From Candidatus Saccharimonadota bacterium (lineage in GTDB: Bacteria; Patescibacteriota; Gracilibacteria; UBA4473): a stretch of 32,000 nt of DNA. Every line of letters starts with the position of its first letter. Within the stretch, counting starts at the first letter, position 1. The stretch spans positions 630,001-662,000 of the forward strand of contig OZ245819.1 in assembly GCA_965228485.1 (NCBI GenBank), read 5' to 3'. Under the pieces are notes generated by a model. It was not told where the DNA came from. It searched no databases and saw only the letters and a program-made list of their open reading frames with translations. The position numbers and the translations under genes were made by a program. This document shows, in pieces, positions 14,196-32,000 of the stretch.

Positions 14196-14225
14196 TTGCG
14201 ATCTCACCTCTTATCGTCCTATAAT
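14196..14225 (+). promoter_or_regulatory. sigma70-type promoter candidate (TTGCGA-N18-TATAAT)
   Basis: Hexamers at 14196-14201 and 14220-14225 in the 275-bp intergenic region, back-to-back with the miaB promoter candidate. An ATG lies 6 nt after the -10. Confidence 0.35.
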
Positions 14226-14431
14226 TGCGTAATGGAGGGTTGTGAATATCCTGAATATCCAATAATTGAAACAGTCGAAAGAAAAAGCGATTGGTCAAGA
14301 GACTGTGAGTTATTTTTTCTACAAAAAGAATAAATCGTTTTCTCTAGTAGAATATCACTAATTGAAAGTCGCGGTTGACTTTATTTAAAAATATCCTTAA
14401 AAAACAAAAAACTTAAAACAATCTCCTTAAT

Positions 14432-15799: not shown

Positions 15800-16731
15800 A
15801 AATAAAGCTGACTTACACTTTTCTGCTCAATGACATTTGTAATCACCCCAGACAATAAATCTGACATAGAAATAGCGGTGAAATTTTTTGGTTTGTTTTC
15901 AACAGGAAGCGAGTCTGTACACACAATTTCAGCAAAATTAGCATTATTTAATCGCTCAATTGCTGGCCCTGAAAAGATTGGATGAGTTGCACAAAGATAA
16001 ACTTCATCACTACTTCCCCCTCCCATAAGAGCTTCTTTAGCGGCACAAACAGAGCCTGCGGTATCAATCATATCATCCACAAGAATTGGAATCTTTCCTT
16101 TAACATCTCCGATTACATGACCCACTTCAGCCTGATTATGACCTGGTCGTTGTTTGTGTAAAATCGCTAATCCAACACCCAGTTCATCTGCAAATTTTTT
16201 GGCGGTTTTAGCTCCTCCTGCATCAGGAGAGACAACGATCGCATTCTCTAGGTTCTTGGATTTAAAATAGTCTACAAAAAGCCTTCGAGGATTCAGATTA
16301 TCTACTGGGACATCAAAGAAACCTTGAGTTTGATCTGAGTGTAGATGAAGCGTAATCACATGATCAGCACCAGATTTCACAATCAAATCAGCAAATAATT
16401 TTGCAGAAATTCCTTCTCTAGCATCATGAATTTTATCCTGCCGAGAGTAGGCAAAATAAGGCATGATAACGTGAATTCGATTGGCAAAGCTTTGTCTGGC
16501 AACATCGATCATTAGAAAAAGCTCCATAAGATCATCATTCATAGAGCCTGTTCGACAAGTCTGAATAATAAAGACATCCTGTCCACGAAAACTCTCTTCA
16601 TACTTGATGTAGGTTTCACCGCAGGCAAAACGTGTAATCTTTATTGGAGAAAGTTCCGTTCCCAAAGCTTTGGCAATCTTTTCTGAAAGCTCTGGATGAC
16701 TGGAGCCGGCAAATATTTTGAAAGGAATCAT
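15796..16731 (-). CDS. prs: ribose-phosphate pyrophosphokinase (PRPP synthetase)
   Basis: IFAGSSHPELSEKIAKALG, YFAYSRQDK, TLHLHSDQTQGFFDVPVDNL, VSPDAGGAKTAKKFA and PILVDDMIDTAGS are the canonical Prs motifs. Confidence 0.92.
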   Translation of the reverse strand: MIPFKIFAGSSHPELSEKIAKALGTELSPIKITRFACGETYIKYEESFRGQDVFIIQTCRTGSMNDDLMELFLMIDVARQSFANRIHVIMPYFAYSRQDKIHDAREGISAKLFADLIVKSGADHVITLHLHSDQTQGFFDVPVDNLNPRRLFVDYFKSKNLENAIVVSPDAGGAKTAKKFADELGVGLAILHKQRPGHNQAEVGHVIGDVKGKIPILVDDMIDTAGSVCAAKEALMGGGSSDEVYLCATHPIFSGPAIERLNNANFAEIVCTDSLPVENKPKNFTAISMSDLLSGVITNVIEQKSVSQLYF

Positions 16732-16786
16732 CGTGATCGCACTTTGCCAAAATTTGATCTTTTTGTAAAATCGTAAAGATTAATTC

Positions 16787-17590
16787 ATGCCAAAATTTTC
16801 TATCATCACTATTAATTATGGGCACTCTGAAAAGATTGCTGCCCTCTGGGAGTCTCTTCAAAAGAAATCCCCTAAGGATGATTTTGAATTTATCGCTGTT
16901 GATAATGCTTCCCCAAAAGATGATGGTGAAGCCCTTAAGTCACTATTACGAGACCAGCCTAATGCTCATACAATTCTTCTTAACAAGAATCTTGGATTTG
17001 GTGGAGGATACGGAGAAGGGATTAAGTTCGCTTCAGGTGAGTATGTGGGGATTATAAATCCGGATATTGAAGTTAAGGAAAATTGTTTAGAGGAATTGGT
17101 TAAAGCTCTGGAAGATAATTCTGATGCAGCTATAACCGTTCCGATACTCGAAAACCCAGATGGAACACTACAACAAAACGCTCGAAAATTTCCAAGCCTA
17201 AAGGTTATGTTTGGTCGACGTTTGTCATTCAAATTTAAAAAGGCTTATGATACCGATCCTGTTTGGTACGAAAGCAAAGACCCCGTTGCTATTGATTGGG
17301 CACAAGGAAGTTTTTTATTTATGAAAAGAGATTTTTTTGAACACAAACTTAAAGGTTTTGATTCTCGTTTTTTTCTTTTTCTAGAAGATACTGATCTTTG
17401 TAGACGAACCTGGATCATGGGAAAAAAAGTACTCTTAGTCCCAACGGCACGAGCTACACACGGAATTGAGAGATTGTCTGGAAATGACTTTTGGCATGCT
17501 GTAAGGAAAAAAACATTCTGGATTCATGTAATGTCAGCCGCCAAGTATTTTCTAAAATACGCTTTCAAAAAAAAGCCTAAGGTTTCATAA
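16787..17590 (+). CDS. family 2 glycosyltransferase
   Basis: FSIITINYG.., VDNASPKDDG, NLGFGGGYGEG and FLEDTDLCRR (DxD-type plus the ED..L motif of GT2 rhamnosyl/glucosyl transferases). Confidence 0.85.
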   Translation: MPKFSIITINYGHSEKIAALWESLQKKSPKDDFEFIAVDNASPKDDGEALKSLLRDQPNAHTILLNKNLGFGGGYGEGIKFASGEYVGIINPDIEVKENCLEELVKALEDNSDAAITVPILENPDGTLQQNARKFPSLKVMFGRRLSFKFKKAYDTDPVWYESKDPVAIDWAQGSFLFMKRDFFEHKLKGFDSRFFLFLEDTDLCRRTWIMGKKVLLVPTARATHGIERLSGNDFWHAVRKKTFWIHVMSAAKYFLKYAFKKKPKVS

Positions 17591-18627: not shown

Positions 18628-21600
18628 TTATTGAAATGAAGCATTACCACTCGTCTCAAATCCAGGAGGTGGATCGTATGAAATTCGCTGATCAATTCTC
18701 ATAACAAATGAGTGTTTATTTGGATAACATGATCCTTCTAAATCTGTACATCGAGCTGCATTCAAATGGGTACCTCCTCCATTGAAGATAGGACTGTAAC
18801 GTCGAATATGATGTAGATCATATTTTTGCGCCACTGGGATACTCACAGATCTTCCCCATGGGTCTTGAGCATCTGGAAGCAGTTGAGCGCCTCCAAGGGT
18901 ATTTCGGGTTAATAATGCTCCAGTCTGAATCAATTGATTATTAAGATTCCCATTAATACTATCTCGGTCAAAATTCTCGCTAAATTGAGGATTATTTCTG
19001 CTTTCAGTTGTTGTCAGTGAACCATCTGCGAAAACCACCGCTGAGAAGAATTTTACATCTTTGTGGACAAAAATATTCCCTGTAGAGTTATAAGTCCCAG
19101 CAGACGGAGCACTTGGATCTGTATTAATAATCATAATTCCAAGAATATCATCTAGTCCTTGGTATCTTGTATCCCCGGCAATAAGAACATTTCCATCTTC
19201 AACAATGATAGTATGTTTCCCTCCGTTGATAATTTCTGGAACAACTTCAGTGGCTCCATTTCCAATTCTTACAATTCCACCTCGAACGTAAGTTACTCCT
19301 CCATCTTGAAGATTACTAAGATCAAGATCGAGAATACTTGAATTCTCTTGCGGTGCCAGCCCCCGAGTAAGCTCAAAGGCATTTCTTGTGGCTTCCTCGC
19401 GGATATCGATCTGAGTATTCCCTCCGAGGAACTGAGCCTGATCTCCAAGATCGGTGTCATCAGAGCTTATATAGATGAAGTCTTCGTCTTCAACCAATAC
19501 TCCCCCTTCGATATCAGCTCCTGCTGTTACGTAATCAAACTCAACACAACTACCAGGAGCTACAACATCACAAAGACATTCCTCTGGAGTCATTCCTTGA
19601 CAAGGAGGGATTGGTGGTGATGGACAAGTTCCTAAAATTTCACAAGGTCGTGGTGGTTCTGGAGTACAAAGACTTGGGAAGAGATCACATGGATCCGCTT
19701 CAGTACAAGTCTCTCCCGGCGGACAAGAAGGAGAACAGCCTCCTCCTACACACCCTGTTGGACAACTCCCTGGAACCGCACAAGCTGGACAAAGTTCAGG
19801 GAAAATACAAATATCCCCTGCCATTAATCCGAGATTATTTCCTGCGTAAACAAGATCCTCTCCATCTAGTCGGTATTTAATTTTAGAGGTAAATCCAGCC
19901 GCTAAGTTGGCTTGCCCTCCTGTTGGTCGAATATGGGTACAGACTAATTTTTCCGAATTCCAGTCTGAGATACCTGTAAATGGCACATTTCGACCATCTA
20001 CTGGAGTGGCTAAATCTTCATTATAGGTTTCCACATTTTCATCAATATGGGCCTTAATATTCACATCATAATTTACTGGAAGATCCTTTCCTGAATTTGT
20101 AGTTGTGGTGTAGGCATACAGACACTCTTCGGTATCAACTCCTACTTCCCATGGGGTAGAAGGCGGTTGATTATTTGGCCTATCACTTAAGAACAAAGAC
20201 ACCCAAGGATTAAAAAGGATTGGGACATCCATAGTAAAACTCTGACGAGTCCCTTGAACCACTCCTCGATTACTTACCATAGGGGAAGAGAGTTGTAGCG
20301 GCAGAGTCTTTGTAATTGGACTCATGAGTGCTGCACCGTTAATTCCTTCAATTACATTCACTGTTGGAAGAATCTCTCGTACATTAATTACTCGTGCACC
20401 ACTTGCTGGCGAAGACCAGTTAAGTTTATGCTTACCATCTTCTTTAGAGCCGCCTTGTAAACGCACTCCATTAAGATAATTATTCCCCATTTCAGTCACC
20501 ACATCATATGACCCTTCCGTATCCTGAGTTTGAGCAAAAGCGGTCATTGAAGAATTCTGAGCAATAACATTTTCAAAACGATCCTGAGTGATAAAACTCA
20601 CTTGACAAGCATCAGCAAGATTCGCGTATAAATCTCCATTTGTACAATTGTGATTCAAAGAAGATTCTGTTTGTGTTTTATCAGCTTCCGCAGGATAAAT
20701 CCGAATGTAAGCGGTTTGAATAGGATTGATTCGATTGTAGGCATTATCATAAATACGCACGGTAATTTTGTAGTTTCCTACTTGAGAGAAAATTGAGTGA
20801 TCTTCTCCATCAAACTTATATTGATTCACATTCCACTCAAAGCTATCTCCTCCCACAGGAGCCATAGTTGAATCTATGTAAGACTGTACAGGCCCACCTC
20901 CCAGACGTTCTATTTCTACATGAGATATTCCTAAATCCTCTAGGTCAGCGTTATTAAGTGCGGCAGCTTCCAAAGCTGCAATTTCATCTTGCAATGTACT
21001 AATCTGGCTATTTACATCCGTCAGTTGAGTATTGATATGGAACTGGGTAGCTCGATTATCTTGGATGGCTGTATTGTAGCTGGCATCCTGAGCAAGACTG
21101 TCAGCAATAATAGTTTCTCGACGACTCGTTCGGGAATCAATGTCATTAGTTGCATAGTCATCATAAACCGCTACCGCTTCACCAAAAACACCTGCTGGAT
21201 CTGTATCTCCATCAACCGTTGCAATGGCCTGACTCATTTGCGTCGCTCGACTAATTAATCCATTTATTTCTCCATAATCAAAAAATGGATCTAGGTACGG
21301 TGGCGGATCAACCGGTGGCGTTCCTAATGGTGGTGGATCAATTATAGAGTATCCTTGTAAGTCAGAAAGCGTCTGAGACACTCGACTGTTAAACTGATTA
21401 ATCCGAGTAACAGCCGTATTAATATGGCTTTCATGAGAACCCACCGCCGTAGGTGATAAGTCATGAATAAGGTCTGCAATATCGGTTGTAACCGTAAACC
21501 CAAGTTCCAAATCATCAATATTATTTCTTAAGCTTGGATCAAGTAGTGCAGTCTTATAAGGAACATAGAAATCGTTGTAACGATCATTAATAATCGTATC

Positions 21601-23079
21601 CATTTCGTCTACACTTTCTTCCCAATTCGGAATATAAAATGAATAATCTTCTACCTTACGAGCATTCCATTCATCTGAATAATTTCTGAGTGTATTATCA
21701 TCTGTCGTTGTACTGTCTTGTGGTGGGAGATTTGGAAAGTCAAAAACTCCTAATAGACTGTTGGTTTCCGCCATAGCAGTGTTTTTTCGAGTCTCAATAA
21801 AGTTCATATCAAAAGCTCCCAATTGGCTTCGAATAGAGCCTATACCACCAACACTATCAAATTTACTATCATTAATCTCAGAAACCACATCATTAAAGGT
21901 ATTTCTACTAATATTACGTGAAGCCAAATTTGCCGCTCTTGTTTCTAAATCGTCTAAATCTTGGATGATGTAAGAACTCGGGGCAGTAATATTTTCACTT
22001 ACCTTTTTCCAAAGATTCAAATTAAGGGTCATATTTGCTTTTACATAGTAGTTGGCAAGACGATTACCAATATCAAGAACCTCTTGAGCTAGTTGTTGAT
22101 CAAGGTTTTCTTGCAACTGATCCCGACGCTGCATCAACTGAAGTAGTTGACTTCTTTTCTGGCTAATTTCTTCACTCTCTACTACCTGATTCCAGTTAAG
22201 CCCAGACTCACAAGAATTACTTCCTCCTGGTCGATCTTCTACATCGATAAGCAAGAATAACGCCCCATCATCAGCTTTGAAACGACGAGGATTCCCTGCA
22301 GTCCCTTTTGACTCTGGTGGCATTCTCAATCCACGATGCTCAATCTGCATAACCCCATTAATCCGGGGAGCACCACGATCAATTAAGGCTGGAGGCGTTG
22401 TACAGTTTCTTGGCCCATTCCCTACTCGATCGTACATCGGAAAAGTTAATCGGTCTCCACATTTTGTAACCCTCTGCTTTGTATTATTCGCCTGACATCC
22501 TGCAGCATTTCTATCCTGAACGTTTCCCTGAATTGTAATTTGGTCACGACAAACCCCAAACCCATCTTTAAGAGTATTGGTTGTATAATTATATCGATCG
22601 TCAGCATAAAATTCGATTGAATCAGAGGCCCAAACACCATTAAGCCCTGTCGGCCATTCGTTAATTCCCGCACCAGTGTTTACAATTGGACACCGTGGTC
22701 GTGTTCTATCATAACGAATTGTCGCCGAAGCGGCTTCATTGACATTTTGACCAAAGTTATTGATAGTCGTTCTTCGAAAAACAACATTCCAGGTTCCTTC
22801 TGGTTTTTGCCCATTAGCATTAAGAGCTGGACTCTCAACAAAAGTCCACTGACCAACAGTCTGACTTCGGATAGGACCAACGGTTGTTACATCATTATTG
22901 GGAGCAGCACCAGATCGAACTTGAGCATTGATATTAAAATTCTGATTCTGTCCATTAATGGTACTATAAGTAGAATTACCATTCACTGGAGATACTTGAG
23001 CCAACAAGAACTCTGCTGAAGGCGAAGTTAATAGAAAAGATAAAACTAATAACGAAGCAAAAAATTTAGGTTTGTTCAT
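18628..23079 (-). CDS. giant secreted protein (1483 aa), Sec signal peptide, coiled-coil region, Cys/Pro-rich module; function unknown
   Basis: Uninterrupted 1483-codon ORF. Signal peptide MNKPKFFASLLVLSFLLTSPSAEFLLAQ. No C-terminal TM. The N-terminus is paralogous to the ORF at 31686. The start lies 10 nt after the stop of the 645-aa gene. Confidence 0.85.
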   Translation of the reverse strand: MNKPKFFASLLVLSFLLTSPSAEFLLAQVSPVNGNSTYSTINGQNQNFNINAQVRSGAAPNNDVTTVGPIRSQTVGQWTFVESPALNANGQKPEGTWNVVFRRTTINNFGQNVNEAASATIRYDRTRPRCPIVNTGAGINEWPTGLNGVWASDSIEFYADDRYNYTTNTLKDGFGVCRDQITIQGNVQDRNAAGCQANNTKQRVTKCGDRLTFPMYDRVGNGPRNCTTPPALIDRGAPRINGVMQIEHRGLRMPPESKGTAGNPRRFKADDGALFLLIDVEDRPGGSNSCESGLNWNQVVESEEISQKRSQLLQLMQRRDQLQENLDQQLAQEVLDIGNRLANYYVKANMTLNLNLWKKVSENITAPSSYIIQDLDDLETRAANLASRNISRNTFNDVVSEINDSKFDSVGGIGSIRSQLGAFDMNFIETRKNTAMAETNSLLGVFDFPNLPPQDSTTTDDNTLRNYSDEWNARKVEDYSFYIPNWEESVDEMDTIINDRYNDFYVPYKTALLDPSLRNNIDDLELGFTVTTDIADLIHDLSPTAVGSHESHINTAVTRINQFNSRVSQTLSDLQGYSIIDPPPLGTPPVDPPPYLDPFFDYGEINGLISRATQMSQAIATVDGDTDPAGVFGEAVAVYDDYATNDIDSRTSRRETIIADSLAQDASYNTAIQDNRATQFHINTQLTDVNSQISTLQDEIAALEAAALNNADLEDLGISHVEIERLGGGPVQSYIDSTMAPVGGDSFEWNVNQYKFDGEDHSIFSQVGNYKITVRIYDNAYNRINPIQTAYIRIYPAEADKTQTESSLNHNCTNGDLYANLADACQVSFITQDRFENVIAQNSSMTAFAQTQDTEGSYDVVTEMGNNYLNGVRLQGGSKEDGKHKLNWSSPASGARVINVREILPTVNVIEGINGAALMSPITKTLPLQLSSPMVSNRGVVQGTRQSFTMDVPILFNPWVSLFLSDRPNNQPPSTPWEVGVDTEECLYAYTTTTNSGKDLPVNYDVNIKAHIDENVETYNEDLATPVDGRNVPFTGISDWNSEKLVCTHIRPTGGQANLAAGFTSKIKYRLDGEDLVYAGNNLGLMAGDICIFPELCPACAVPGSCPTGCVGGGCSPSCPPGETCTEADPCDLFPSLCTPEPPRPCEILGTCPSPPIPPCQGMTPEECLCDVVAPGSCVEFDYVTAGADIEGGVLVEDEDFIYISSDDTDLGDQAQFLGGNTQIDIREEATRNAFELTRGLAPQENSSILDLDLSNLQDGGVTYVRGGIVRIGNGATEVVPEIINGGKHTIIVEDGNVLIAGDTRYQGLDDILGIMIINTDPSAPSAGTYNSTGNIFVHKDVKFFSAVVFADGSLTTTESRNNPQFSENFDRDSINGNLNNQLIQTGALLTRNTLGGAQLLPDAQDPWGRSVSIPVAQKYDLHHIRRYSPIFNGGGTHLNAARCTDLEGSCYPNKHSFVMRIDQRISYDPPPGFETSGNASFQ

Positions 23080-23089: not shown

Positions 23090-25027
23090 TTATTTTCTAT
23101 AAAGTTTAATAGCACTCCAAACAAGAGACACCCCTACCATAAATAGGAATACTCCAACAAGCTTGAACCATAGTGGGTCTCTATTTTTCTGAGGTTCTAC
23201 AACCTCTGGCATCTCAGGTTCTTCATTTTTGGTTACTACTTCCTCTTCACCCTTATCTTTAAGTGTATTCACCAAATCATCAGACAAGGATTCTAATGCA
23301 CTTTCTGGCAAAACAGTATTTATCCCTTTCGCACTTATGTAATCTTGAAATTCATCAAACAAGATTCTTCGAGCACTATCATACTCTTCTTCGGTGATTC
23401 GACCATGAAGCTTCTTATTTTCAATATCAGCAAAATCCATCTTAAAGGTCTTGAATTGTTGTTCAAAAGCCTGAACTGTCGAGATTTTAGCCGCAAATTC
23501 TTTCTCTATATCTGTAATTTTTGAATACAATTCCTGGATGATAAGTGCATCTTCTTCAGCATCGATTTGTGCCTGAATTTCTGCAATTAAAGCATCTCGC
23601 TCATCAATCAAGGCTTGAATTTCATCATTCACATAACTTGTTTGAGAAATTTTTCGAAGACGAGCATCCATAATTGGAATCACTGCTCCTCCAAATTCCA
23701 TATCTTTATATTCAAGTGTTGATACATCTAGATTTGCAAGATCATCCGCCTGATCAACAATATGTTCTACATTCTCAAGTCTCTTTTGATAATCGATTGG
23801 ATATTCCATATATCTTCGATAGAAGGCATTTGACTCATCCTCTAGATCGAGGTTTTCGAAACCTCCATAATATCGACCGTAATTAGGAACTAAGGCAGCT
23901 CGAATCATATTCTGAACTGATTCATCTTCAATAGATTCGACCTTTTGAATAAGATCTAAAGGCACTCCATCATAAAGAGCTAGACCATCTCCAGAACCTC
24001 CAATAATCCCAAAATCTGTTTCATCGGATAATTGCTCATAAAGCTCCTGACGCATATTCGTAAAACTCTTATTTAGGTTTGCAGGATCAGTCATAAAATT
24101 ACGAGTATATTGAGCAATTTCAAAATCATTTAAGAAGCTATTTCCACTGTCATAACTTAAAAGGATTTGATTATAAACTAAAAGGACTGGACGCGTTCCG
24201 TCCTCATTTCTTTCTCGAGATAAAAAAGTATCACGCAATGTCGATCTCAAAAATTTATGATCATTTTTATCCTCGATGGTTTTATATTTAGCATCAGAAG
24301 CTTGCACATCGGTTCTCCAAAACAAATCTCGACTTACCTCTGTTTCGTCTTCACTAAAAGATTTCAGCACATATTGCTCCCCAGGAGTAAAAGTAAAGAC
24401 TCCACAACTCAAAAGATCTCCTCCGAAATCTTCCGATAAATGCTGAACAAAGACAATAAATTCTCGCATATCTCTATAAGGGTTTCCACCTGGAAAGTCC
24501 CTATTTGAAGCAGGATTTGGGTCTCTTGATCTCGGTGGATACTCAAAGGCATTTTGTCGTCCAAAAGTAACATAACGAGTATCAGTATAGTATCCGTTTA
24601 TAATTTCTTCTTCGCCATCATCATCTACATCACCAATTGAAGTCTCAACATCATCTTGGTAGGTAAGGATTCCTGACAAATTACGATTTGATTTTGCTGG
24701 CGTCAACTCGTAAGTGTAAACAGGCGAAACATTAAATAATTGATGAGGATAAAATTGAATATCATCCTGCAACATCGGAACAGGCACTTCGAAAGCCTTT
24801 ACAAAATCATCGTAAGTCGCAATTGAAAATTCTCCTGATTCAAGAGTTTCTCCCTCAGGGCCATTAATTTTTCTTACACTAGAAAAATCTAGATTAGCAA
24901 AAACTGCATCTGTTTTCATTTCTTCCTGCAAATTCATCAAGCAAGCTTGTTCAGGGGTAGTTTCCCGAGCTTGAGCCGTCACAAAAAGTAATGGCAATAA
25001 CCCCACCGCTAAACACAATCTATTCAT
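23090..25027 (-). CDS. 645-aa surface protein: signal peptide, DxDxDG-type loop, coiled coil, C-terminal TM anchor; paralog of 29611-31674
   Basis: Signal peptide MNRLCLAVGLLPLLFVTAQA; SIGDVDDDGEEEIINGYYTDTRYVTFG; heptad-like region IQALIDERDALIAEIQAQIDAEEDAL; C-terminal LWFKLVGVFLFMVGVSLVWSAIKLYRK. Collinear similarity to the 687-aa protein along its whole length. Confidence 0.85.
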   Translation of the reverse strand: MNRLCLAVGLLPLLFVTAQARETTPEQACLMNLQEEMKTDAVFANLDFSSVRKINGPEGETLESGEFSIATYDDFVKAFEVPVPMLQDDIQFYPHQLFNVSPVYTYELTPAKSNRNLSGILTYQDDVETSIGDVDDDGEEEIINGYYTDTRYVTFGRQNAFEYPPRSRDPNPASNRDFPGGNPYRDMREFIVFVQHLSEDFGGDLLSCGVFTFTPGEQYVLKSFSEDETEVSRDLFWRTDVQASDAKYKTIEDKNDHKFLRSTLRDTFLSRERNEDGTRPVLLVYNQILLSYDSGNSFLNDFEIAQYTRNFMTDPANLNKSFTNMRQELYEQLSDETDFGIIGGSGDGLALYDGVPLDLIQKVESIEDESVQNMIRAALVPNYGRYYGGFENLDLEDESNAFYRRYMEYPIDYQKRLENVEHIVDQADDLANLDVSTLEYKDMEFGGAVIPIMDARLRKISQTSYVNDEIQALIDERDALIAEIQAQIDAEEDALIIQELYSKITDIEKEFAAKISTVQAFEQQFKTFKMDFADIENKKLHGRITEEEYDSARRILFDEFQDYISAKGINTVLPESALESLSDDLVNTLKDKGEEEVVTKNEEPEMPEVVEPQKNRDPLWFKLVGVFLFMVGVSLVWSAIKLYRK

Positions 25028-25051: not shown

Positions 25052-25078
25052 AAAAAAAAGGCGCACTAGGCGCCTTTT
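25052..25078 (-). terminator. intrinsic terminator/attenuator between the 97-aa gene and the 645-aa gene
   Basis: The minus-strand transcript reads AAAAGGCGCC-uagu-GCGCCUUUUUUUU: a GC-rich stem GGCGC/GCGCC extended by A-U pairs, then an 8-U run. It sits 13 nt after the stop at 25091 and 25 nt before the ATG at 25027. Confidence 0.6.
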
Positions 25079-25090: not shown

Positions 25091-25384
25091 CTAGTTTCCT
25101 CCATCATCATCCCCATCATCCCCATCATCGTCTCCATTATCATTGTCAACCGATCGAAATTGGAATGTCTGGCCTGGGTCGCTGATGTTATAGGTCTGCT
25201 TTCCTGGACCAGCCCAACCATCAGGTGTATCTGTTGGGACTTGAATCTCTAAAGCTTTCGCTACTTGAGATGGCACCATGCACCCTGAACCACTTCCACA
25301 AAGCCAAAAATCGATGGCTAGGTAAAACAGCCCAACAGACGCACAGATAAGACCTGCGGCAAAGAATTGTTCTTTTCTACTCAT
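25091..25384 (-). CDS. 97-aa membrane-anchored small protein with Cys triad and poly-Asp/Gly C-terminal tail; paralog of 29296-29571
   Basis: MSRKEQFFAAGLICASVGLFYLAIDFWLCGSGSGC..DNDNGDDDGDDGDDDGGN. It shares an identical 12-residue core, CASVGLFYLAID, with the 91-aa paralog, plus conserved Cys spacing (C-x14-C-x5-C). Confidence 0.75.
   Translation of the reverse strand: MSRKEQFFAAGLICASVGLFYLAIDFWLCGSGSGCMVPSQVAKALEIQVPTDTPDGWAGPGKQTYNISDPGQTFQFRSVDNDNGDDDGDDGDDDGGN
25094..25147 (-). repeat. GAT/GGN trinucleotide-rich simple tract encoding the Asp/Gly tail
   Basis: The plus strand reads ..tcctccatcatcatccccatcatccccatcatcgtctccattatcattgtc.., including a tandem ATCATCCCC x2. Confidence 0.7.
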
Positions 25385-25407: not shown

Positions 25408-25437
25408 ATTCTAGCCTGTATAGCAATATCTAGTAAA
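25408..25437 (-). promoter_or_regulatory. promoter candidate for the 97-aa gene (TTTACT-N18-TAGAAT on minus strand)
   Basis: The -10 CTAGAAT lies 23 nt upstream of the ATG. The paralogous gene has the same CTAGAAT 26 nt upstream of its ATG. Confidence 0.3.
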
Positions 25438-25485
25438 GCTGTTTTATTTGCCTCACTTCTCTTTGTGTTATGAAGATACAATTAT

Positions 25486-25650
25486 TTAATCTTGCAAATA
25501 GGGACGAATGATAAAAAAATAAATAACACCGCAAGCCGTGGCAAAAAATAAACTCCACCATAGCACATAGATCACTTCCCAGTACTGTACGAGAAATTTT
25601 TGTATTGGCCATAGCCCAATAGATGGTTCATCAAATATTATAGATTTCAT
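25486..25650 (-). CDS. 54-aa single-TM micro-protein, partner of HTTM-like gene (not in supplied ORF track)
   Basis: Hand translation gives MKSIIFDEPSIGLWPIQKFLVQYWEVIYVLWWSLFFATACGVIYFFIIRPYLQD*. It starts 5 nt after the HTTM-like stop (25656) and is homologous by eye to the 72-aa ORF in the same position after the other HTTM-like gene. Confidence 0.6.
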   Translation of the reverse strand: MKSIIFDEPSIGLWPIQKFLVQYWEVIYVLWWSLFFATACGVIYFFIIRPYLQD

Positions 25651-25655: not shown

Positions 25656-26918
25656 CTAGTGATAATAATTTTTAACAGGATACCCTATGATTTTGGCTTC
25701 ATCAGGGAACTTGATCCATTCGTTATGCTTCCAAGCACTGTATTCCAAATTACAGGCATTAGATTCGTCAATTAAACGATAAAAAGGCCCTCCATTGATC
25801 GAGTGATCAAACGTCCACTCAATCCTATCGATTGTGTTATTAACACGACACCTTTCACGCTGCTGATACCAATATTTATAAGGATCACAGCGATGACGAG
25901 CTAATCGTCGTTGTTTCACTTTTTCTCGGACCTCTCCATCGGTGTAATAAATTTTAGCCTTCGAAACACATTGATGATTTGCCTCAAACATATAAAGACC
26001 AAAATAATTTCCTTCAAGTGTAAACTTCTCATCCCCTGGGATAAAATGAGACCAAGATTGCCCTAAACACATAACACAAACCACAATCCAACCTGGAAGT
26101 GTCGACCAACCTTTTGGAATTTTTTTATACTCAAACCAAGGCCCAAAGAGTATTAATAACATTGGTAATACAGTGGTTGGATATCGATATTCAACTAGTA
26201 CCCCCGAATACAAATGAAAAGCTACAAAGAATAAGAAAACTATTCTTTGAATATACGTATTCTTGTGGAATAAAAACCAAGCCGCAACCACTTCCATAAA
26301 CATAACAAGATTTGTCCAAACTGGAATCGACCAATCAGGGAAGATTGGCAAACCTGTATGCATAGCTGAAAAATATGTACCCAAAATCCAGGTTTCGTGG
26401 ATTTTTACGGCCACAGAGAGGAAGTAGAATAAAACTAAATAAAATCGTAAAAAGAAAAGTTTCTGTGGAAGCACAAGTAATGCAAGTCCAAAAATTACTA
26501 CATAGTATTCATAATTACCGATATGACTGAAGGAAATAAACGTCATCAATGCTTTAAATACCCAGAGTAACAACGTCAAAAAATGAGCCTCCCCCCATTT
26601 CCCAAGGGACATACAATAAATTATAAGAGCCATAACAGCCCACACTCCCATAAAAAACATTGTTTGGGTATAACCAAAAGGAAGTGCGGATAAAAAAGCT
26701 AAATCCGAACAGTTTTGAAAATATGGCCAACATAAACTCGCTCCTCTTGCAACGGAATCAACGGTGAACTCACTATTCCCGATCCATTTATTAAATGTTA
26801 AGAACAATCCCAGCAAAAAAGCACCAAAAGCCCATTTAAGGATTCTATCGTTTTCTATTTCTTCAACAGAGAAAAACTTTTTGTAGACCGCAAATATTCT
26901 TGAATTTATATTTTTCAT
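25656..26918 (-). CDS. HTTM / vitamin K-dependent gamma-carboxylase-like polytopic membrane protein, copy 2
   Basis: Same landmarks as copy 1: LCWPYFQNC, NYEYYVVIFGLALLVLP, AVKIHETWILGTYF, FHLYSGVLV..LILFGPW, EANHQC..RHRC..C..NAC. Confidence 0.65.
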   Translation of the reverse strand: MKNINSRIFAVYKKFFSVEEIENDRILKWAFGAFLLGLFLTFNKWIGNSEFTVDSVARGASLCWPYFQNCSDLAFLSALPFGYTQTMFFMGVWAVMALIIYCMSLGKWGEAHFLTLLLWVFKALMTFISFSHIGNYEYYVVIFGLALLVLPQKLFFLRFYLVLFYFLSVAVKIHETWILGTYFSAMHTGLPIFPDWSIPVWTNLVMFMEVVAAWFLFHKNTYIQRIVFLFFVAFHLYSGVLVEYRYPTTVLPMLLILFGPWFEYKKIPKGWSTLPGWIVVCVMCLGQSWSHFIPGDEKFTLEGNYFGLYMFEANHQCVSKAKIYYTDGEVREKVKQRRLARHRCDPYKYWYQQRERCRVNNTIDRIEWTFDHSINGGPFYRLIDESNACNLEYSAWKHNEWIKFPDEAKIIGYPVKNYYH

Positions 26919-27024: not shown

Positions 27025-28041
27025 ATGATTGAAGCTATAAAAAAACATCCGATATACCAAAAATTTTTTGAAATCAACCCCCAAATATTGCAAACCTTTG
27101 TTATTGGAAATCTGTTGATTATTGGCGGAAAATATTTTGGATTTGTTGATATTAGCTGGTTAAATATAGCGATTGTTATCGGTTTGTGCGTCGTTGTAGA
27201 TTACGCTTTTCGATGTGTTCAAAACAAAGAAACAAAATTTCCGCACTCTGCCGTTAACTCTGCTATAGGGCTCTGTCTATTCCTTAGAACTACAAGTATC
27301 CCTATTTATGTGTTTGCCGCCGTACTTGCGATCCTCTCAAAACACTTCATTCAGATAAAAGGAAATCATTTTTTCAATCCATCTTATACAGCCATCTTTG
27401 CCAGCATTATGATGTTTCCGATTGTAGCTTATGTAAACCCCCTCCAATGGCAAACTGGAAGCTGGACTGCTGTGGGAATCATTGCACTCCTTGGAAGTCT
27501 TGTGATGCTAAGAGTTGGAACTTTTGCCATCGTAACAGGATACTTTGTAACGTTCTATGCCTGGATCAAACTTTTTACCAGTCATTCATGGGACGATATC
27601 AAAATTCTATTCTTTTCGGGAAGCTTTTTTATTTTAGTTTTTCACGGACTCACAGATCCTGCCATTATTCCAAAAAGAAAATTACATCGACTTCTTTATG
27701 TAACTCAAATCTCAACATTGTTTTTCGTCTATCGCTTATTTATAAATGAAAATTACAGCTTTTTCCTTGCCTACTTTACGGTGAACTTCCTAGAAATGTT
27801 TTTCTGGAAACTTGAAAACTATGAGTCAAAAATTGGAAACTGGAGAACTATTACCCAAGGTGCCGTAACACTAATCTTTTTTGGATTAATGGTTAACAGT
27901 AGCTATAACCACACTCAAAAATACAATGGAGTTTGGCCTGAGCTACTTACAAATCGATGTATTCAGCCTATCTGTGACTCAAGAGAAGCTAGAGACAATC
28001 TAGACCTCCTCACACCATTTTTTCTTTTTGAAAAAGACTAA
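27025..28041 (+). CDS. polytopic membrane protein, tentatively NQR2/RnfD/RnfE-superfamily-like, copy A
   Basis: About 8-10 hydrophobic helices. Motifs KHFIQIKGNHFFNPSYTA and FHGLTDPAIIPK resemble the RnfD/NqrB FNPA and TDPxT.P motifs (from memory). Paralog of 28038-29045. Confidence 0.5.
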   Translation: MIEAIKKHPIYQKFFEINPQILQTFVIGNLLIIGGKYFGFVDISWLNIAIVIGLCVVVDYAFRCVQNKETKFPHSAVNSAIGLCLFLRTTSIPIYVFAAVLAILSKHFIQIKGNHFFNPSYTAIFASIMMFPIVAYVNPLQWQTGSWTAVGIIALLGSLVMLRVGTFAIVTGYFVTFYAWIKLFTSHSWDDIKILFFSGSFFILVFHGLTDPAIIPKRKLHRLLYVTQISTLFFVYRLFINENYSFFLAYFTVNFLEMFFWKLENYESKIGNWRTITQGAVTLIFFGLMVNSSYNHTQKYNGVWPELLTNRCIQPICDSREARDNLDLLTPFFLFEKD

Positions 28042-29045
28042 ATATCAGGTTCCCACTGACAAACCAATTCTAAACACCGGTTCGTTAAAATCTCTGGCCA
28101 GATGTGGTCATGTTTTAGGTAGTAATTAATACTTAATCCGGCCATAGCCACAAAAATAACAACCGTGGTTAGAGACTGCCAAAAAGTACGAGCATTAAAC
28201 TTCATAAATTGACGAGACTCAAGATGCCAAAATGGAATTTCCAAAACGGTTACAATAACATACCCGATAAGAATCGAATAATTTTCGTTCAAAAACAATC
28301 GACAAATAAAGAAAAGCATCGAAGCCTGAACTACGTACATCAATCTGTGAAGTCGTTTTTTTGGTAAAATCGCTGGATCGGTTAACCCAAAAAAGGCCAC
28401 AATAAAGAAACTTCCGGTTAAAAATAGAACCTGCAAATCACCAAAGGTATAAGTCGTAAAGAGATTAAGCCACAGGAAGAAAGTTAAAAAGTAAGTAAGC
28501 ACAACATCAAACAGCCCAACACGCATCATTACAATACTTCCAACCGCCGCAATAACTGCTAATATCCAAAGCCCTCCCCCACTCCATTGAACTGGATTGG
28601 TATAAGCCACAATTGGAAACATAGCCCAACAAACTAAAACAGCTGTGTATGAAGGGTTAAGAAAATGCCTTCCTTTTATACGAACTAGATGTTTCGTTAG
28701 AATAGCAACAATAGCGGCAAACACATATATAGGGAGGACGGCCGTTCTCAAAAAGAAACAAATTCCAATTCCAGAGTTAATGGCTGAAAGTGGAATTATT
28801 TTTTTGTTATAGAAAAAGTAGTGACACAAAAAATCAAAAATCGTAATAGAGGCAAACACCGCCAACATATCTATCCAACGAATCTCTACAAAACCCAGGA
28901 ATTTACCTCCAAACAATAACAAGAAGCCAATTGCAAAGTTTTGAAAAAATTGAGGATGAATTTTTCCTAGCTGCTCAAAAAACATCGGCTTACAAACATA
29001 GTCCCGAGTGTCAGGAAAGTAACCAGCAATCTTTTTAAGCGACAT
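28038..29045 (-). CDS. polytopic membrane protein, tentatively NQR2/RnfD/RnfE-superfamily-like, copy B
   Basis: KHLVRIKGRHFLNPSYTA, FFGLTDPAILPK and a C-terminal WPEILTNRCLELVC (copy A: WPELLTNRCIQPIC). Convergent with copy A; the stop codons overlap within CTAA at 28038-28041. Confidence 0.5.
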   Translation of the reverse strand: MSLKKIAGYFPDTRDYVCKPMFFEQLGKIHPQFFQNFAIGFLLLFGGKFLGFVEIRWIDMLAVFASITIFDFLCHYFFYNKKIIPLSAINSGIGICFFLRTAVLPIYVFAAIVAILTKHLVRIKGRHFLNPSYTAVLVCWAMFPIVAYTNPVQWSGGGLWILAVIAAVGSIVMMRVGLFDVVLTYFLTFFLWLNLFTTYTFGDLQVLFLTGSFFIVAFFGLTDPAILPKKRLHRLMYVVQASMLFFICRLFLNENYSILIGYVIVTVLEIPFWHLESRQFMKFNARTFWQSLTTVVIFVAMAGLSINYYLKHDHIWPEILTNRCLELVCQWEPDI

Positions 29046-29239: not shown

Positions 29240-29269
29240 TTTCAGTTTTAGACTCCATTAACCTAGAAT
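29240..29269 (+). promoter_or_regulatory. promoter candidate for the 91-aa gene (TTTCAG-N18-TAGAAT)
   Basis: CTAGAAT at 29263-29269, 26 nt upstream of the ATG at 29296. This mirrors the left-arm candidate. Confidence 0.3.
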
Positions 29270-29295: not shown

Positions 29296-29571
29296 ATGAG
29301 TCAACGAGAAAAAGTTGTCGGAGTAGGGTTTCTTTGTGCGTCTGTTGGTTTATTCTACCTAGCCATTGATTTATGGGTTTGTGGAAGCGATACAGTCTGC
29401 CAAAAAGAACACCACATCGCAAAAGCCATTACCATCGATTACGAAACTGAGGCCGATGATTGGTCTGGTCGTAATAAACCAAATTTTTACGTCAACTCTC
29501 CTGGGTTGAATGTATCCTTCCCTCCCCCACCATCAACTGGAGATGGTGATGGCGGCGGCGATGGTCACTAG
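29296..29571 (+). CDS. 91-aa membrane-anchored small protein with Cys triad, Pro tract and Gly/Asp tail; paralog of 25091-25384
   Basis: MSQREKVVGVGFLCASVGLFYLAIDLWVCGSDTVC..PPPPSTGDGDGGGDGH. Confidence 0.75.
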   Translation: MSQREKVVGVGFLCASVGLFYLAIDLWVCGSDTVCQKEHHIAKAITIDYETEADDWSGRNKPNFYVNSPGLNVSFPPPPSTGDGDGGGDGH

Positions 29572-29610: not shown

Positions 29611-31674
29611 ATGATAAGAAATAATACAGCCTCACTTTTGTTAGCCTCTTTTTTGTTTACCAATCTAACCCCCGTAGCTTCTGCGGCTCGAGGTGGTGGA
29701 GGAAGTCCCGAAAATAAATGTATTCAGAATATTATTGAAGCGGCTGGTAGTCATACTGCTTTTTCAGATATTGATTTCTCAGCACTCGTAAAAACCAACG
29801 GTCCAGATGGATCAAAAGTTTCTTCTAAACCTTTCTCGGTAACCGATCATAATGAGTTTCTGGAAATCGCAGATACTCCAGTACCTTTAATCGATGACGA
29901 TCTATCTTATTTCCCAGATGAACTCGAGAAAGTTTCTCCTAATTACGTTGTTACGGAAGGAGTTCACAAATCTAATCGAAATAATGGTGCCTACTTGTTA
30001 TACAGCGATGGAACTTCAACCAGCATTGGAGATATTGATGGAGATGGAGAAGATGAAACTATTGATGGTTACTACGTAGACTCTCGATATGTTACCTTCG
30101 GAGATCAAAGTGATCTAGAGTTCTCTTTTCCAACACGAGATCCAAACCCAGATGATGATAGAGAATTTCCTATGGGGTCTCCATTAAAGGATATGCGTCA
30201 ATATTTATTCTTTACTCATCACCTAGCTTCTAAGTACGGGGGGAAATTTATGAGTTGTGGTTTGGTAAAAGTAAGTCCAACCGACGACTATGCACTTAAA
30301 TCTTATGCTGGAGAAAAATCAATTCGATGGACTTATTATGGTTTCCCTCGACCTCAACAAACAAATGTTAGAACTAATGTTAAAAATCGAGGAGGAGATA
30401 AATTCCGAATCGGAGATATTCGATTTATTGTCTCTGCAAAAGAAGTCGACACCGCCAATGGTGGATATCAATTCGATAATGAACTTCTAAAATACAATGT
30501 TCTTATTTCTGCTTATGACAATAGAAGTAACTTCATGAATGAATTCAAGACACTCAAAATTTTTGAGGAAAACATGAATGACACCACTAACGCCACAAGT
30601 TCTTTTGTTGAATCACGACTCAGTTTCTACCGAGCTCTTATCGATAAACTAAATCTTGGGATTCTAGGAAATCTTGAACTAGATGATGGGCTTGAAGAAG
30701 ATTCTGTAAGTTCAATTGATCCAACACAGCTATATGCAAGTGTATTAGATGCTGGAGGATCAGACACCACTAAATCAGGCGGGCTATCAATCATGCCTGG
30801 AGTAAGCTTAGAAACTTATGAGAAAGTGGAATCAATTGAAGACGAAACGACAAAAAACATGCTTCGATCCGCCCTGATTCCAGATTATGGAGGAATGATT
30901 GCCGATTTTACAGAGAAGCCTGCATCAGAAATGAATGATTTTGAAAAAGCTTATAACGAATATCCTCTAACATACGAAGAACGAGTAGAAAATGTTGAAT
31001 ACATTTTGGAAAATAGTGGTGGAGAAATCGAAAATCTAACACCAGAAAACTTTGAATATAAGGACATGGTTTTCGGGGAAGCGGTTATTCCAGTGACAGA
31101 CAAAAGAATCAGAGACATCGTTTCACAAAGCTATCTAGACAACGAAATGGCCGAGTTAGAAGCTAAAAAACAAGCTGAATTAGACAAAGTTGTGGTGACT
31201 GATGATATGAGTATCACAGATCAACAGGCTGCATACCGAGCTCAAGATGAAATTGAAAGGAGATACGAAGGAGAGTTGTCAAAACTGATGACTTTTGAAG
31301 GAGAGCTTGCAAACTTCAAAGTAAAATTTGCTGACGTAGAAAATCAATTTGAACACGGTCGTATTACCGAAAGCGAATATGAAACTAAAAGAAAGGCTCT
31401 ACTTAATGACTTTAATAACACCGTCAAAACTGGACAACTAGCTGATAGTGTTTCTAGCGATAGACTAAAAGCTCTGTCTCAATCACTTACGAATCGTGTT
31501 AATAGTGTTCAAGAAAATCAATCAACGAGCACTGATGAAACTTCTTCAGGTAAAAAAGGATACAGTACTCAAACACTTATTGTTAAAGGGTCGGCTGTAG
31601 CTCTATTTATAATCGCAATAGGACTAGCTTTATTGGCTATACGAAAAATTAAAAAAAACAGTAACACAAAATAA
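29611..31674 (+). CDS. 687-aa surface protein: signal peptide, DxDxDG-type loop, coiled coil, C-terminal TM anchor; paralog of 23090-25027
   Basis: Signal peptide MIRNNTASLLLASFLFTNLTPVASA; SIGDIDGDGEDETIDGYYVDSRYVTFG; FKVKFADVENQFEHGRITESEYE (left copy: FKMDFADIENKKLHGRITEEEYD); C-terminal TM AVALFIIAIGLALLAIRKIKKN. Confidence 0.85.
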   Translation: MIRNNTASLLLASFLFTNLTPVASAARGGGGSPENKCIQNIIEAAGSHTAFSDIDFSALVKTNGPDGSKVSSKPFSVTDHNEFLEIADTPVPLIDDDLSYFPDELEKVSPNYVVTEGVHKSNRNNGAYLLYSDGTSTSIGDIDGDGEDETIDGYYVDSRYVTFGDQSDLEFSFPTRDPNPDDDREFPMGSPLKDMRQYLFFTHHLASKYGGKFMSCGLVKVSPTDDYALKSYAGEKSIRWTYYGFPRPQQTNVRTNVKNRGGDKFRIGDIRFIVSAKEVDTANGGYQFDNELLKYNVLISAYDNRSNFMNEFKTLKIFEENMNDTTNATSSFVESRLSFYRALIDKLNLGILGNLELDDGLEEDSVSSIDPTQLYASVLDAGGSDTTKSGGLSIMPGVSLETYEKVESIEDETTKNMLRSALIPDYGGMIADFTEKPASEMNDFEKAYNEYPLTYEERVENVEYILENSGGEIENLTPENFEYKDMVFGEAVIPVTDKRIRDIVSQSYLDNEMAELEAKKQAELDKVVVTDDMSITDQQAAYRAQDEIERRYEGELSKLMTFEGELANFKVKFADVENQFEHGRITESEYETKRKALLNDFNNTVKTGQLADSVSSDRLKALSQSLTNRVNSVQENQSTSTDETSSGKKGYSTQTLIVKGSAVALFIIAIGLALLAIRKIKKNSNTK

Positions 31675-31685: not shown

Positions 31686-32000
31686 ATGCATAAACACACA
31701 CAAAAGTTCATTGCTCTAGGCTATATCGCCATAAGTTTAGCGAGCTATGGTTCTGTGCAGGCACAATCTTTTAATTTCAGACTATCTGGAAACGTTCAGT
31801 ATAATGGAAGTCCTGCAGTAAATAGAAATTATAATGCCTCAGCAGAGCGTGGGCAGTACTTAAATAATAATCTCAACTCCATTGCCCCAACCGTAAGGAG
31901 TAATGCCATTGGTGGTAACGGAGGATTATCTACTCCAAGCCTAGCTCTTTCTGGAGCAAAGAAAGAAGGGAGAATTCCTGTTCAATTTAGCCGACAAATT
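31686..32000 (+). CDS. 5' part of a second giant secreted protein (continues beyond window; not in supplied ORF track)
   Basis: The ATG at 31686 lies 11 nt after the 687-aa stop, and the frame is open for 105 codons to the window edge. Hand translation gives MHKHTQKFIALGYIAISLASYGSVQAQSFNF.., a signal peptide. ..IAPTVRSNAIGGNGGLSTPSLALSGAKKEGRIPVQFSRQ aligns by eye with ..VGPIRSQTVGQWTFVESPALNANGQKPEGTWNVVFRRT of the 1483-aa protein. Confidence 0.7.
   Translation, partial: MHKHTQKFIALGYIAISLASYGSVQAQSFNFRLSGNVQYNGSPAVNRNYNASAERGQYLNNNLNSIAPTVRSNAIGGNGGLSTPSLALSGAKKEGRIPVQFSRQI

Follow-up and report, generated by a model that had tools for sequence, protein, structure and literature searches.

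Why would two small proteins that have diverged over most of their length keep one stretch of membrane helix residue for residue? The question arises in a 32,000-nucleotide (nt) window from a "Candidatus Saccharimonadota" bacterium that GTDB places in the Gracilibacteria (assembly GCA_965228485.1, contig OZ245819.1, positions 630,001 to 662,000; coordinates given without a locus name are those of this window), where a first-pass annotation had singled out a pair of paralogs. Small protein A (97 amino acids, aa) is encoded at positions 25091 to 25384, where we confirmed the open reading frame (ORF) and corrected the earlier record by placing it on the minus strand; its paralog, small protein B (91 aa), with an equal transmembrane core, is encoded at positions 29296 to 29571 on the plus strand. 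The answer that we tentatively favor is that these proteins are signal-anchored subunits found at the base of a cell-surface complex, where they would serve its structure or its assembly. Docking of their helix specifically onto an RnfD-like membrane protein encoded nearby is a more doubtful part of this answer.

Small protein A starts with MSRKEQFFAAGLICASVGLFYLAIDFWLCGSGSGC, has a short basic N terminus, and ends in the tail DNDNGDDDGDDGDDDGGN; small protein B ends in PPPPSTGDGDGGGDGH with a C-terminal His. The two are identical at 33 of 76 aligned residues (43%; BLASTP, E = 2e-23), and the run of 12 consecutive identities reported for the N-terminal hydrophobic segment is present: CASVGLFYLAID occupies residues 14 to 25 of both proteins. 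At a background identity of 43%, the arithmetic chance of such a run is 0.43^12, or ∼4e-5, per start position. The DNA of this block is identical at 31 of 36 nt, and its five differences, spread over four codons, are all synonymous, again as the first-pass annotation had it. By alignment, the observation of the paralogous pair is confirmed and is well beyond chance.

The same peptide recurs outside the window. A word-indexed search of 5.8 billion proteins recovered two orthologues of small protein A (83% and 69% identity), against which the ratio of nonsynonymous to synonymous divergence (dN/dS) is 0.06 to 0.10, with dS saturated. An 11-residue core, AS[VI]GLFYLAID, was found in five genes, namely, both window copies and those of three loci from relatives (L001, L002, and L003; such loci carry L numbers throughout), and its DNA differs between genes of different samples at 4 to 9 of 33 nt, always synonymously. 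Small protein B is nearer than A to the L003 protein and to the type found in L005 to L008. Recent gene conversion was considered as the origin of the identical block and rejected, since orthologues from other samples keep the peptide while their synonymous sites are randomized. Because the core differences among orthologues are all silent, conservation acts on the peptide and is not a by-product of gene conversion. On this evidence, the constraint on the shared core is protein-level purifying selection, which bears out the strong selection on the hydrophobic segment that had been proposed.

The family around the pair is small. When 1.84 billion representative proteins were searched exhaustively with an HMMER profile, only 11 clusters emerged, all of 85 to 103 aa, and genes read directly from the loci bring the total to 20 distinct members, so homologues with the conserved core do occur in related genomes; as far as these searches reach, the family is known only from a narrow group of uncultured small-genome bacteria. 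Neither Pfam nor NCBIfam gave a meaningful match for the window pair or its relatives, no match to Pfam was found at E ≤ 10 among 14 members, and the sole match of the family profile to PDB chains, a designed coiled coil, is not meaningful. The only match of the small-protein alignment in GTDB genomes (L004) was dismissed as chance, as it lies on a high-GC contig inside overlapping long ORFs. By database comparison, the small proteins are an undescribed orphan family.

We also considered whether the conserved core is merely a generic signal peptide shared with unrelated proteins, and rejected this identity. A profile limited to the transmembrane part (N-terminal 36 columns) matched one ORF per locus, and two in the window, at 45 to 74 bits, and no other ORF scored above 9 bits among the ∼3,500 six-frame ORFs of the loci. 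Because this profile is family specific and matches the small genes only, the core is not a generic signal peptide of the neighboring secreted proteins.

Across the 20 members, the N terminus is basic and in most of them 4 to 6 residues long. A single hydrophobic peak (Kyte-Doolittle, 1.8 to 2.25) with a positive N flank was seen in all 15 members tested; small protein A reaches 1.91 over 19 residues, with a positively charged N flank. The hydrophobic helix spans ∼22 residues (∼7 to 28 in small protein A, including Asp25), of which the inner half is variable and the outer half nearly fixed, with near-fixed positions at S16, G18, L19, F20, L22, A23, I24, D/E25, and W27. In the alignment, positions 17, 21, and 28 vary and most other positions of 16 to 30 are fixed, a pattern suggesting that most of the helix perimeter is buried at the level of the outer leaflet. 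Directly after the helix comes a C29-G-x4-C35 loop in 18 of the 20 members (P0007 is a member without Cys; small protein A has C29-x5-C35), followed by an A-x-A-I-x-I/V strand, a near-invariant Trp in W-S-G (W57-A-G in small protein A), P-N-F-x-I, a further strand, and often PPP(P). The variable tail ends in His (14/20), Asn (4/20), or Cys (2/20). An AlphaFold2 model of small protein A, built on a 14-sequence alignment, has a helix at residues 3 to 31 with a predicted local distance difference test (pLDDT) score of 70 to 83, three weak strands that make the ectodomain a weakly predicted beta-strand structure, and a disordered tail.

This survey supports the earlier description of small N-terminally anchored proteins with an unusually constrained hydrophobic segment, and it narrows three details. 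The Cys triad C-x14-C-x5-C is present in both window copies (C14-x14-C29-x5-C35), but C14 is confined to the four closest sequences, and only the C29/C35 pair is kept family-wide. The helix Asp and the low-complexity Asp/Gly tail are likewise as described in the window pair but less general than implied, with Asp or Glu in the helix of 14 of the 20 members and an acidic tail in 14. Both features occur together in 13 members and are both missing from 5, which is only a hint of association given that the members are not independent.

Targeting and cofactor motifs were looked for as well. We read the N-terminal sequence of small protein A, MSRKEQFFAAGLICASVG, directly for leader motifs; a class III leader (G-F-x-x-x-E, with the break after Gly) was found neither there nor in the 19 relatives. 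There is no lipobox (L-[AS]-[GA]-C at the end of a short signal peptide), since G-L-I or G-F-L stands before C14 and F-W-L or L-W-V before C29. The S/T-G-A-S/T flavinylation motif is absent too: W-S-G is followed by P, R, S, K, or E and not by A-[ST].

The genomic setting is what points to a surface complex. The window locus is a mirrored duplication, with arm A on the minus strand and arm B on the plus strand, and we confirmed that in each arm the small gene comes first, ahead of the genes for an anchor and a giant protein. In arm A, small protein A is followed by an anchor/stalk protein of 645 aa (23090 to 25027), with a signal peptide, a globular N-domain, a coiled coil, and a C-terminal transmembrane helix with a Lys-rich end, and then by a giant secreted protein of 1,483 aa (18628 to 23079), with a signal peptide, a Cys/Pro-rich segment, and no Pfam domain, which is 36% identical over its full length to the L005 giant. 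In arm B, small protein B is followed by an anchor/stalk protein of 687 aa (29611 to 31674) and by the start of a second giant with its signal peptide (31686 to 32000), whose ORF runs past the window end. The anchors of the two arms are 33% identical, with poorly conserved transmembrane segments, and the RnfD-like proteins are 47% identical. Pfam and NCBIfam returned nothing meaningful for the anchors and giants of the window, weak library matches to DMAP_binding, MG_279/280, and VSG were set aside as coiled-coil or compositional, and sequence comparison found no similarity of anchors or giants to solved S-layer proteins.

This arrangement is recurrent. Counting distinct loci with a small gene followed by an anchor gene, including loci found via neighboring genes, we identified 13 cassettes, and all 13 have the order small, anchor, giant. 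Both orthologues of small protein A have an anchor homologue directly after them, and the small gene also leads in L001, L002, and L005 to L008. Loci retrieved with the anchor alignment, which are unbiased with respect to the small gene (L009 and L010/L011), all have a small-family gene immediately upstream of the anchor. An RnfD-like gene is adjacent in 10 of the 13 cassettes and missing from 1, and the contigs of the remaining 2 are too short to tell; conversely, five of six loci retrieved with the RnfD-like protein (L013 to L017) have it beside the small, anchor, and giant genes. The L015 cassette lies in an unrelated genomic neighborhood, so the cassette travels as a unit. In L014, the four genes run in one direction, RnfD-like first and then small, anchor, and giant; the small protein of this locus (107 aa) retains the N-terminal helix as well as the Trp and the terminal His and is without the Cys pair. 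In the literature searched, we found no description of this cassette or of RnfD homologues in Patescibacteria.

The stalk and canopy genes vary between loci. The anchor is split into two genes in L009 (9968 to 13013), L013 (6927 to 9531), L016 (4934 to 7419), and L017 (4799 to 7519), as well as in L010/L011; one gene encodes the N-terminal globular part, and the other encodes ∼286 to 317 aa with its own signal peptide, a conserved YKD-x-x-FGEAVIP motif, a coiled coil, and the transmembrane anchor. The giants of the split-anchor loci are near or above 2,700 aa. Calx-beta matches were found in the giant homologues of L016 and L017, with a weak one in L013. Long Asp or Gly/Asp low-complexity runs, such as GGGDDDDDDDDDDDDDDDDF and GGGDGGDGGGGGGGDG, occur in the L005 giant (12359 to 16870) and in the first anchor part of L013 (7927 to 9531), so the Asp/Gly tails of the small proteins seem to follow a habit shared by the exoproteins of this cassette.

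Two RnfD/NqrB-fold proteins are encoded between the arms, one of 338 aa (27025 to 28041, plus strand), divergent from the arm A operon, and one of 335 aa (28038 to 29045, minus strand), divergent from small gene B. Their genes are convergent with a 4-nt overlap, and the proteins share long conserved membrane motifs. The first scored 29.5 bits to PF03116 (cutoff, 27.7) and the other 23.5 bits. The AlphaFold2 model of the 335-aa protein (pLDDT, 80.3; predicted template modeling score, 0.80) found its best PDB matches in RnfD (8rbq_D, 9eri_D, and 8ahx_D) and NqrB (7xk3_B), with template modeling scores of 0.46 to 0.59. In a profile alignment with A. woodii RnfD (9eri_D), the FNP[AS] and TDP motifs align, and the stretch carrying the flavin mononucleotide (FMN)-bearing Thr (...tdtvttatpl..., >30 residues of RnfD) has no counterpart in the family; in the model, the loop between helices 5 and 6 is ∼15 residues long. 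The earlier "RnfD-like" label is therefore sound at the level of the fold, but the flavin-attachment loop is absent.

The RnfD-like family is very narrow (10 proteins among 5.8 billion) and is set apart by an extra, eleventh helix and a conserved LTNRC-x4-C tail. The C-x4-C tail is present in eight of nine proteins; the L014 protein is without it. Because RnfD termini are cytoplasmic (PMC9588780), the eleventh helix should place this tail outside, on the same side as the Cys pair of the small proteins. In its pumps, NqrB/RnfD is the subunit that conducts Na+ (PMC9588780). Thioredoxin-fold genes (Thioredoxin; AhpC-TSA) lie beside the RnfD-like gene in L012 (11197 to 11514) and L014 (2820 to 3059), the two most divergent contexts.

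From these observations we propose that the small protein is bitopic, with its N terminus inside and its C terminus outside, and that the helix would be retained as a signal anchor and not cleaved, because it is the best-conserved part of the protein and ∼22 residues long. The complex would comprise the small subunit, the C-tail-anchored coiled-coil stalk, and the giant secreted protein; the structural or assembly role is suggested by the invariable position of the small gene ahead of a tail-anchored stalk and a giant exoprotein. The outer-leaflet half of the helix, S16-x-G-L-F-x-L-A-I-D/E-x-W-x-C-G, would pack on a conserved membrane partner, for which the RnfD-like protein is the best candidate, and C29 and C35 would form a juxtamembrane disulfide loop. 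Beyond it, a short beta-strand ectodomain with the near-invariant Trp (W-S-G) could touch the base of the stalk or the giant, while the Pro-rich segment would project outward together with the variable Asp/Gly spacer and the terminal His, and these parts may hold a divalent cation or fit into a partner's pocket. The two arms would represent an old duplication in which ectodomains and anchors diverged together and the membrane core stayed fixed.

The choice of helix partner follows from what has drifted and what has not. Because the anchor transmembrane segments have drifted, the anchor helix is a less likely partner than either the RnfD-like protein or the small protein itself; the RnfD-like protein is favored because the small helix is near-identical between the arms and the RnfD-like membrane motifs are conserved. 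All anchors have a Lys at the outer end of their helix, and the anchor helices are poorly conserved; a salt bridge between the small-protein Asp and this Lys was considered and dropped, as the L005 anchor keeps the Lys and its small protein has no Asp. PMC10979944 describes two-subunit Nqr/Rnf-like modules with an NqrC/RnfG-like protein, anchored by its N terminus, whose predicted place is directly on a non-flavinylated NqrB/RnfD-like subunit, the latter having lost its flavinylation Thr. A redox role is not implied here, because the small and RnfD-like proteins have both lost every recognizable cofactor site.

Several observations weigh against this proposal. The C-G-S/A following the helix could in principle be cut by signal peptidase, neither the helix Asp/Glu nor the acidic tail is universal, and the model of small protein A has a mean pLDDT of only 56.7, with a low-confidence ectodomain. 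L005, which has the most diverged small protein of the loci, contains the small-anchor-giant trio and no RnfD-like gene within 10 kb, and L012 contains an RnfD-like gene (50% identical) beside a thioredoxin gene and without the trio; the RnfD link is therefore frequent and not obligatory. In L014, the RnfD-like tail and the Cys pair of the small protein are both missing, a single co-loss in a single locus. Finally, most loci represent one syntenic neighborhood in fairly close relatives (phosphoribosyl pyrophosphate synthase, 75 to 82% identical), so the conservation of gene order partly reflects shared ancestry.

The possible cut after the helix leads to the first alternative, that the hydrophobic segment is a cleaved Sec signal peptide and the product a secreted peptide of ∼60 residues, disulfide looped and Pro/Asp/Gly tailed, which would bind the giant surface protein, cap it, or serve as a soluble factor. 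The n-h-c layout, the small residues after the helix (W-x-C-G-S/A), a conserved A-x-A ∼12 residues further on, and the Sec export of the neighboring anchor and giant proteins are all compatible with it. Signal peptides, however, normally evolve fastest, and a cleavable h-region covers ∼7 to 15 residues before a small-x-small site. Here, the hydrophobic stretch has the membrane-spanning length of ∼22 residues, is the most conserved part of the protein both between paralogs of 43% identity and among orthologues with saturated synonymous sites, and yields a family-specific profile; in P0006, moreover, the residue at the would-be position −1 is Asp. We consider a secreted peptide unlikely.

A slightly less likely alternative makes the juxtamembrane Cys pair a redox-active dithiol that, jointly with the RnfD-like C-x4-C tail, forms either a thiol-disulfide relay or a common metal site to serve the Cys-rich exported stalk and giant proteins. 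In its favor are the prevalence of both motifs (18/20 small proteins and 8/9 RnfD-like proteins), their predicted position outside the membrane, their joint loss in L014, the thioredoxin-fold genes flanking the RnfD-like gene in L012 and L014, and the conserved or abundant Cys of anchors and giants. Yet a structural disulfide explains a C-x5-C loop at the membrane surface equally well, L005 has the Cys pair without an adjacent RnfD-like gene, and the co-loss is one event. The flavin site of the RnfD-like protein, which would feed electrons, is lost, and no cytoplasmic redox domain is attached.

By analogy with ExbBD-TonB or MotAB, it is conceivable, if quite improbable, that the RnfD-like protein is a repurposed ion-conducting subunit with the small protein as its obligate single-helix partner, the two jointly forming a membrane "stator" or gate. 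Such a unit would, with the same low probability, couple ion flow or membrane state to the stalk-and-canopy complex. If true, this would be a stator built from a respiratory-pump subunit in bacteria without a respiratory chain.

The first-pass annotation had pointed, speculatively, in another direction, with the small proteins as substrates or scaffolds modified by adjacent polytopic enzymes (an HTTM/vitamin-K-carboxylase-like protein and the RnfD-like proteins) for a calcium-binding surface component. The carboxylase candidate was a 420-aa polytopic membrane protein with a Cys-rich C-terminal part (25656 to 26918, minus strand), labeled HTTM/carboxylase-like. That label found no support: the protein has no Pfam match at E ≤ 0.1, no HTTM match at E ≤ 10, and, against all PDB chains (phmmer), only a chance match at E = 1.1. 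It has a 463-aa paralog 17 kb away (7265 to 8656, minus strand), likewise without a Pfam or PDB sequence match, and both paralogs match the same genes in L005 and L006. On these comparisons, the 420- and 463-aa proteins are a second orphan membrane family duplicated in this genome. Nor is a link to the small gene supported, as the 420-aa gene is directly upstream of it only in arm A and in the two close orthologous loci L001 and L002; the L005 and L006 homologues are not adjacent to the small gene, and the second paralog in the window is unlinked.

For calcium itself, the evidence divides. Acidic Asp/Gly tails in 14 of the 20 small proteins, a DxDxDG-type string in 7 of the 20 tails, DxDxDG-like loops in the anchors of the window arms, and the Calx-beta matches of the L016, L017, and (weakly) L013 giants are in its favor. 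A genuine DxDxDG calcium loop is structured and has further ligands; the strings here lie within Asp/Gly low-complexity runs predicted to be disordered, where a match says little either way. On the other side, the tails consist of Asp, Gly, and Asn and offer no Glu to carboxylate, six of the 20 members have no acidic tail, the anchor loop is not conserved in L007, and the Asp/Gly runs of the L013 anchor and the L005 giant point to a compositional habit. A calcium theme is thus weak for the small protein itself and finds some support, through Calx-beta, at the level of the cassette. Modification by a neighboring enzyme is very unlikely, and the small proteins are most likely not calcium-binding carboxylase substrates. 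Least probable is a pilin-like major subunit polymerizing via the conserved N-terminal helix: the conserved hydrophobic N terminus, the variable C-terminal part, and a terminator after small gene A that suggests expression above the downstream genes fit this idea, but there is no class III signal (no Gly−1, Phe+1, or Glu+5), none of the loci has a gene for a prepilin peptidase, an assembly ATPase, or a platform protein, and the ectodomain comprises only ∼45 residues before a disordered tail.

That terminator is one of several putative regulatory elements around the small genes. A GC-rich, terminator-like hairpin with a T8 run (25056 to 25078, minus strand) lies directly after the small gene A stop codon and before the anchor gene. 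Hairpins of this type (stem GGCGCC/GCGCC plus T7-8) also occur in L001 (530 to 556) and L002 (718 to 744), and the stem is identical in the three genomes, while the loop varies and synonymous sites of the adjacent coding sequence are saturated. No such hairpin was found after small gene B or in the other loci, where the small-anchor spacer is 7 to 39 nt. In the arm A lineage, the hairpin suggests partial termination, which would yield more small protein than anchor.

Upstream of small gene A is a promoter-like site, TTTACT-18-TAGAAT (25408 to 25437, minus strand), and a TAGAAT box precedes small gene B (∼29262 to 29267); TTTACA-N17/18-TAGAAT/TAAAAT stands upstream of the small gene in L009 to L017, and all of these are consensus matches only. 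A conserved palindrome-like element, GCAATTG(C/T), lies ∼60 to 90 nt upstream of the small gene in L009, L010/L011, L013, L016, and L017, just upstream of TTTACA-N17/18-TA(G/A)AAT in the divergent RnfD-like/small intergenic region. The arm A lineage has GCAAAT(T/A)AAA-N-CTTTACT in its place. The GCAATTG(C/T) element may act as an operator or activator site common to these loci.

Between the 420-aa gene and small gene A, we noted an unlisted ORF for a 54-aa one-helix protein (25486 to 25650, minus strand; beginning MKSIIFDEPSIGLWPIQKF). Its sequence, MKSIIFDEPSIGLWPIQKFLVQYWEVIYVLWWSLFFATACGVIYFFIIRPYLQD, is conserved in L001 (53%) and L002 (61%), and L005 has a weakly similar 72-aa ORF at the matching position after the 420-aa homologue; the 60-aa ORF listed at 25430 to 25612 is probably in the wrong frame. 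Further away, a 166-aa DtxR-like protein (8600 to 9100, plus strand) matched both iron-dependent-repressor domains below threshold. Its ORF and the 5′ end of the 463-aa ORF on the opposite strand share 57 nt, and the TTG start of the 463-aa ORF may be mis-set. An 877-aa ORF beside dnaJ (394 to 3027, plus strand) is a large orphan with no Pfam family above noise.

The window, from a contig of 1.295 Mb (that of a relative measures 1.326 Mb), has a GC content of 38% and no Shine-Dalgarno-like sequences upstream of its genes. Its 24 main ORFs end in TAA (14) or TAG (10) and never in TGA; none has an in-frame TGA, and TGA is common out of frame in these genes (157 and 515 occurrences). TGA stops are rare in relatives as well (1 of 16 in L005, 1 of 11 in L015, and 3 of 11 in L016), again with no in-frame TGA. 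An alternative code for the window was considered and rejected, as relatives use TGA stops and only L014 is recoded; because close relatives use TGA as a stop and in-frame TGA is absent, the standard code gives a correct reading of the window. UGA may be depleted in this genome. L014, in contrast, has 109 in-frame TGA in 3,037 codons at positions where relatives have Gly or small residues, so it apparently reads UGA as Gly, and the cassette therefore spans a genetic-code boundary. UGA-to-Gly reassignment extends to the Absconditabacteria. It has been reported for Gracilibacteria (PMC11452946), and in phylogenies such bacteria fall together with Peregrinibacteria (PMC8080830). Most likely, then, the source organism belongs to this clade of the candidate phyla radiation; Peribacteria were rejected as the source on GC content (58.5%, against 38% here).

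At the gene level, the machinery that forms the envelope and mediates host attachment in ultra-small bacteria of the Peregrinibacteria/Gracilibacteria type is essentially uncharted; giant Cys-rich surface proteins have been noted, with their anchoring and assembly not stated (PMC4736985, PMC8080830). Our analysis defines a compact recurrent cassette of four genes, those for the RnfD-like membrane protein, the small anchored protein, the tail-anchored stalk, and the giant exoprotein, that survives fast sequence divergence, duplication within a genome, and a change of genetic code. Within it, an NqrB/RnfD-fold protein stripped of its flavin site is tied to surface-protein genes rather than to redox partners. 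If the small protein is a membrane adaptor, it offers a handle on how a near-minimal cell holds a surface protein of 1,500 to nearly 3,000 residues. More generally, the strongest constraint in a locus can fall on an ORF of <100 aa at the start of an operon, and the cassette gives concrete targets for metaproteomics, cryo-electron tomography, and heterologous reconstitution.

Among known systems, the closest likeness is to the NqrC/RnfG-like subunits of the two-subunit modules (Meheust et al. 2021, as described in PMC10979944): by hydropathy and charge bias, the small proteins too are small extracytosolic proteins with a single N-terminal transmembrane helix, and in 10 of the 13 cassettes their gene lies beside that of an NqrB/RnfD-fold protein lacking the flavinylation Thr. 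The rnfD-rnfG and nqrB-nqrC order is matched by L014, where the RnfD-like gene precedes the small gene. In contrast to NqrC/RnfG, the small proteins have neither an FMN_bind domain nor the S/T-G-A-S/T motif, and their ectodomain is ∼60 rather than ∼180 residues long. Unlike in Nqr/Rnf complexes, the RnfD-like partner has no NAD-binding domain, and the pair is tied to giant surface-protein genes and not to redox partners.

Two other likenesses are looser. Type IV pilins and pseudopilins share the conserved N-terminal hydrophobic helix, the variable disulfide-containing C-terminal part, and the small size. Their class III signal is a short basic leader ending in Gly, with Phe/Met at +1 and Glu at +5; the small proteins lack this leader, Glu5, and a pilin head fold, and their loci contain no assembly genes. 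Gla-type substrates of vitamin-K-dependent carboxylase (HTTM family) carry a cluster of Glu residues for carboxylation beside a recognition propeptide. The resemblance to them is superficial, an acidic exported peptide with a polytopic protein nearby, and the small proteins differ in that the neighbor has no HTTM similarity, the tails carry Asp and not Glu, and the linkage is not conserved.

ExbD, TolR, MotB, and TonB are single-pass proteins with the N terminus inside and the C terminus outside, a conserved transmembrane helix with an acidic or polar residue, and an ion-conducting polytopic partner; TonB also has a Pro-rich spacer. The small proteins share the predicted topology, the conserved helix, and the acidic residue. 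In them, however, the Asp/Glu lies at the outer end of the helix (residue 25 of ∼7 to 28) and not near the cytoplasmic end, where ExbD/TolR/MotB have an invariant Asp, and it is present in 14 of 20 members; they have no Pfam match, and the fold of the RnfD-like partner is unlike that of ExbB/TolQ/MotA.

For the anchor and giant genes, the nearest parallel in architecture is SlaB/SlaA of Sulfolobales, in which the gene for a coiled-coil stalk of ∼450 to 700 aa with a C-terminal transmembrane helix lies beside that for a secreted canopy protein of at least ∼1,400 aa, and the canopy forms a two-dimensional lattice held by the stalk. Sequence comparison showed no relationship, and the host here is bacterial; to our knowledge, the SlaA/SlaB system has no third small transmembrane subunit and no RnfD-like partner. 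The small proteins themselves would be of a familiar kind, the bitopic accessory subunit of a membrane or surface complex, placed in an unfamiliar setting that appears to join a flavin-less RnfD-fold partner to a stalk and giant surface proteins.

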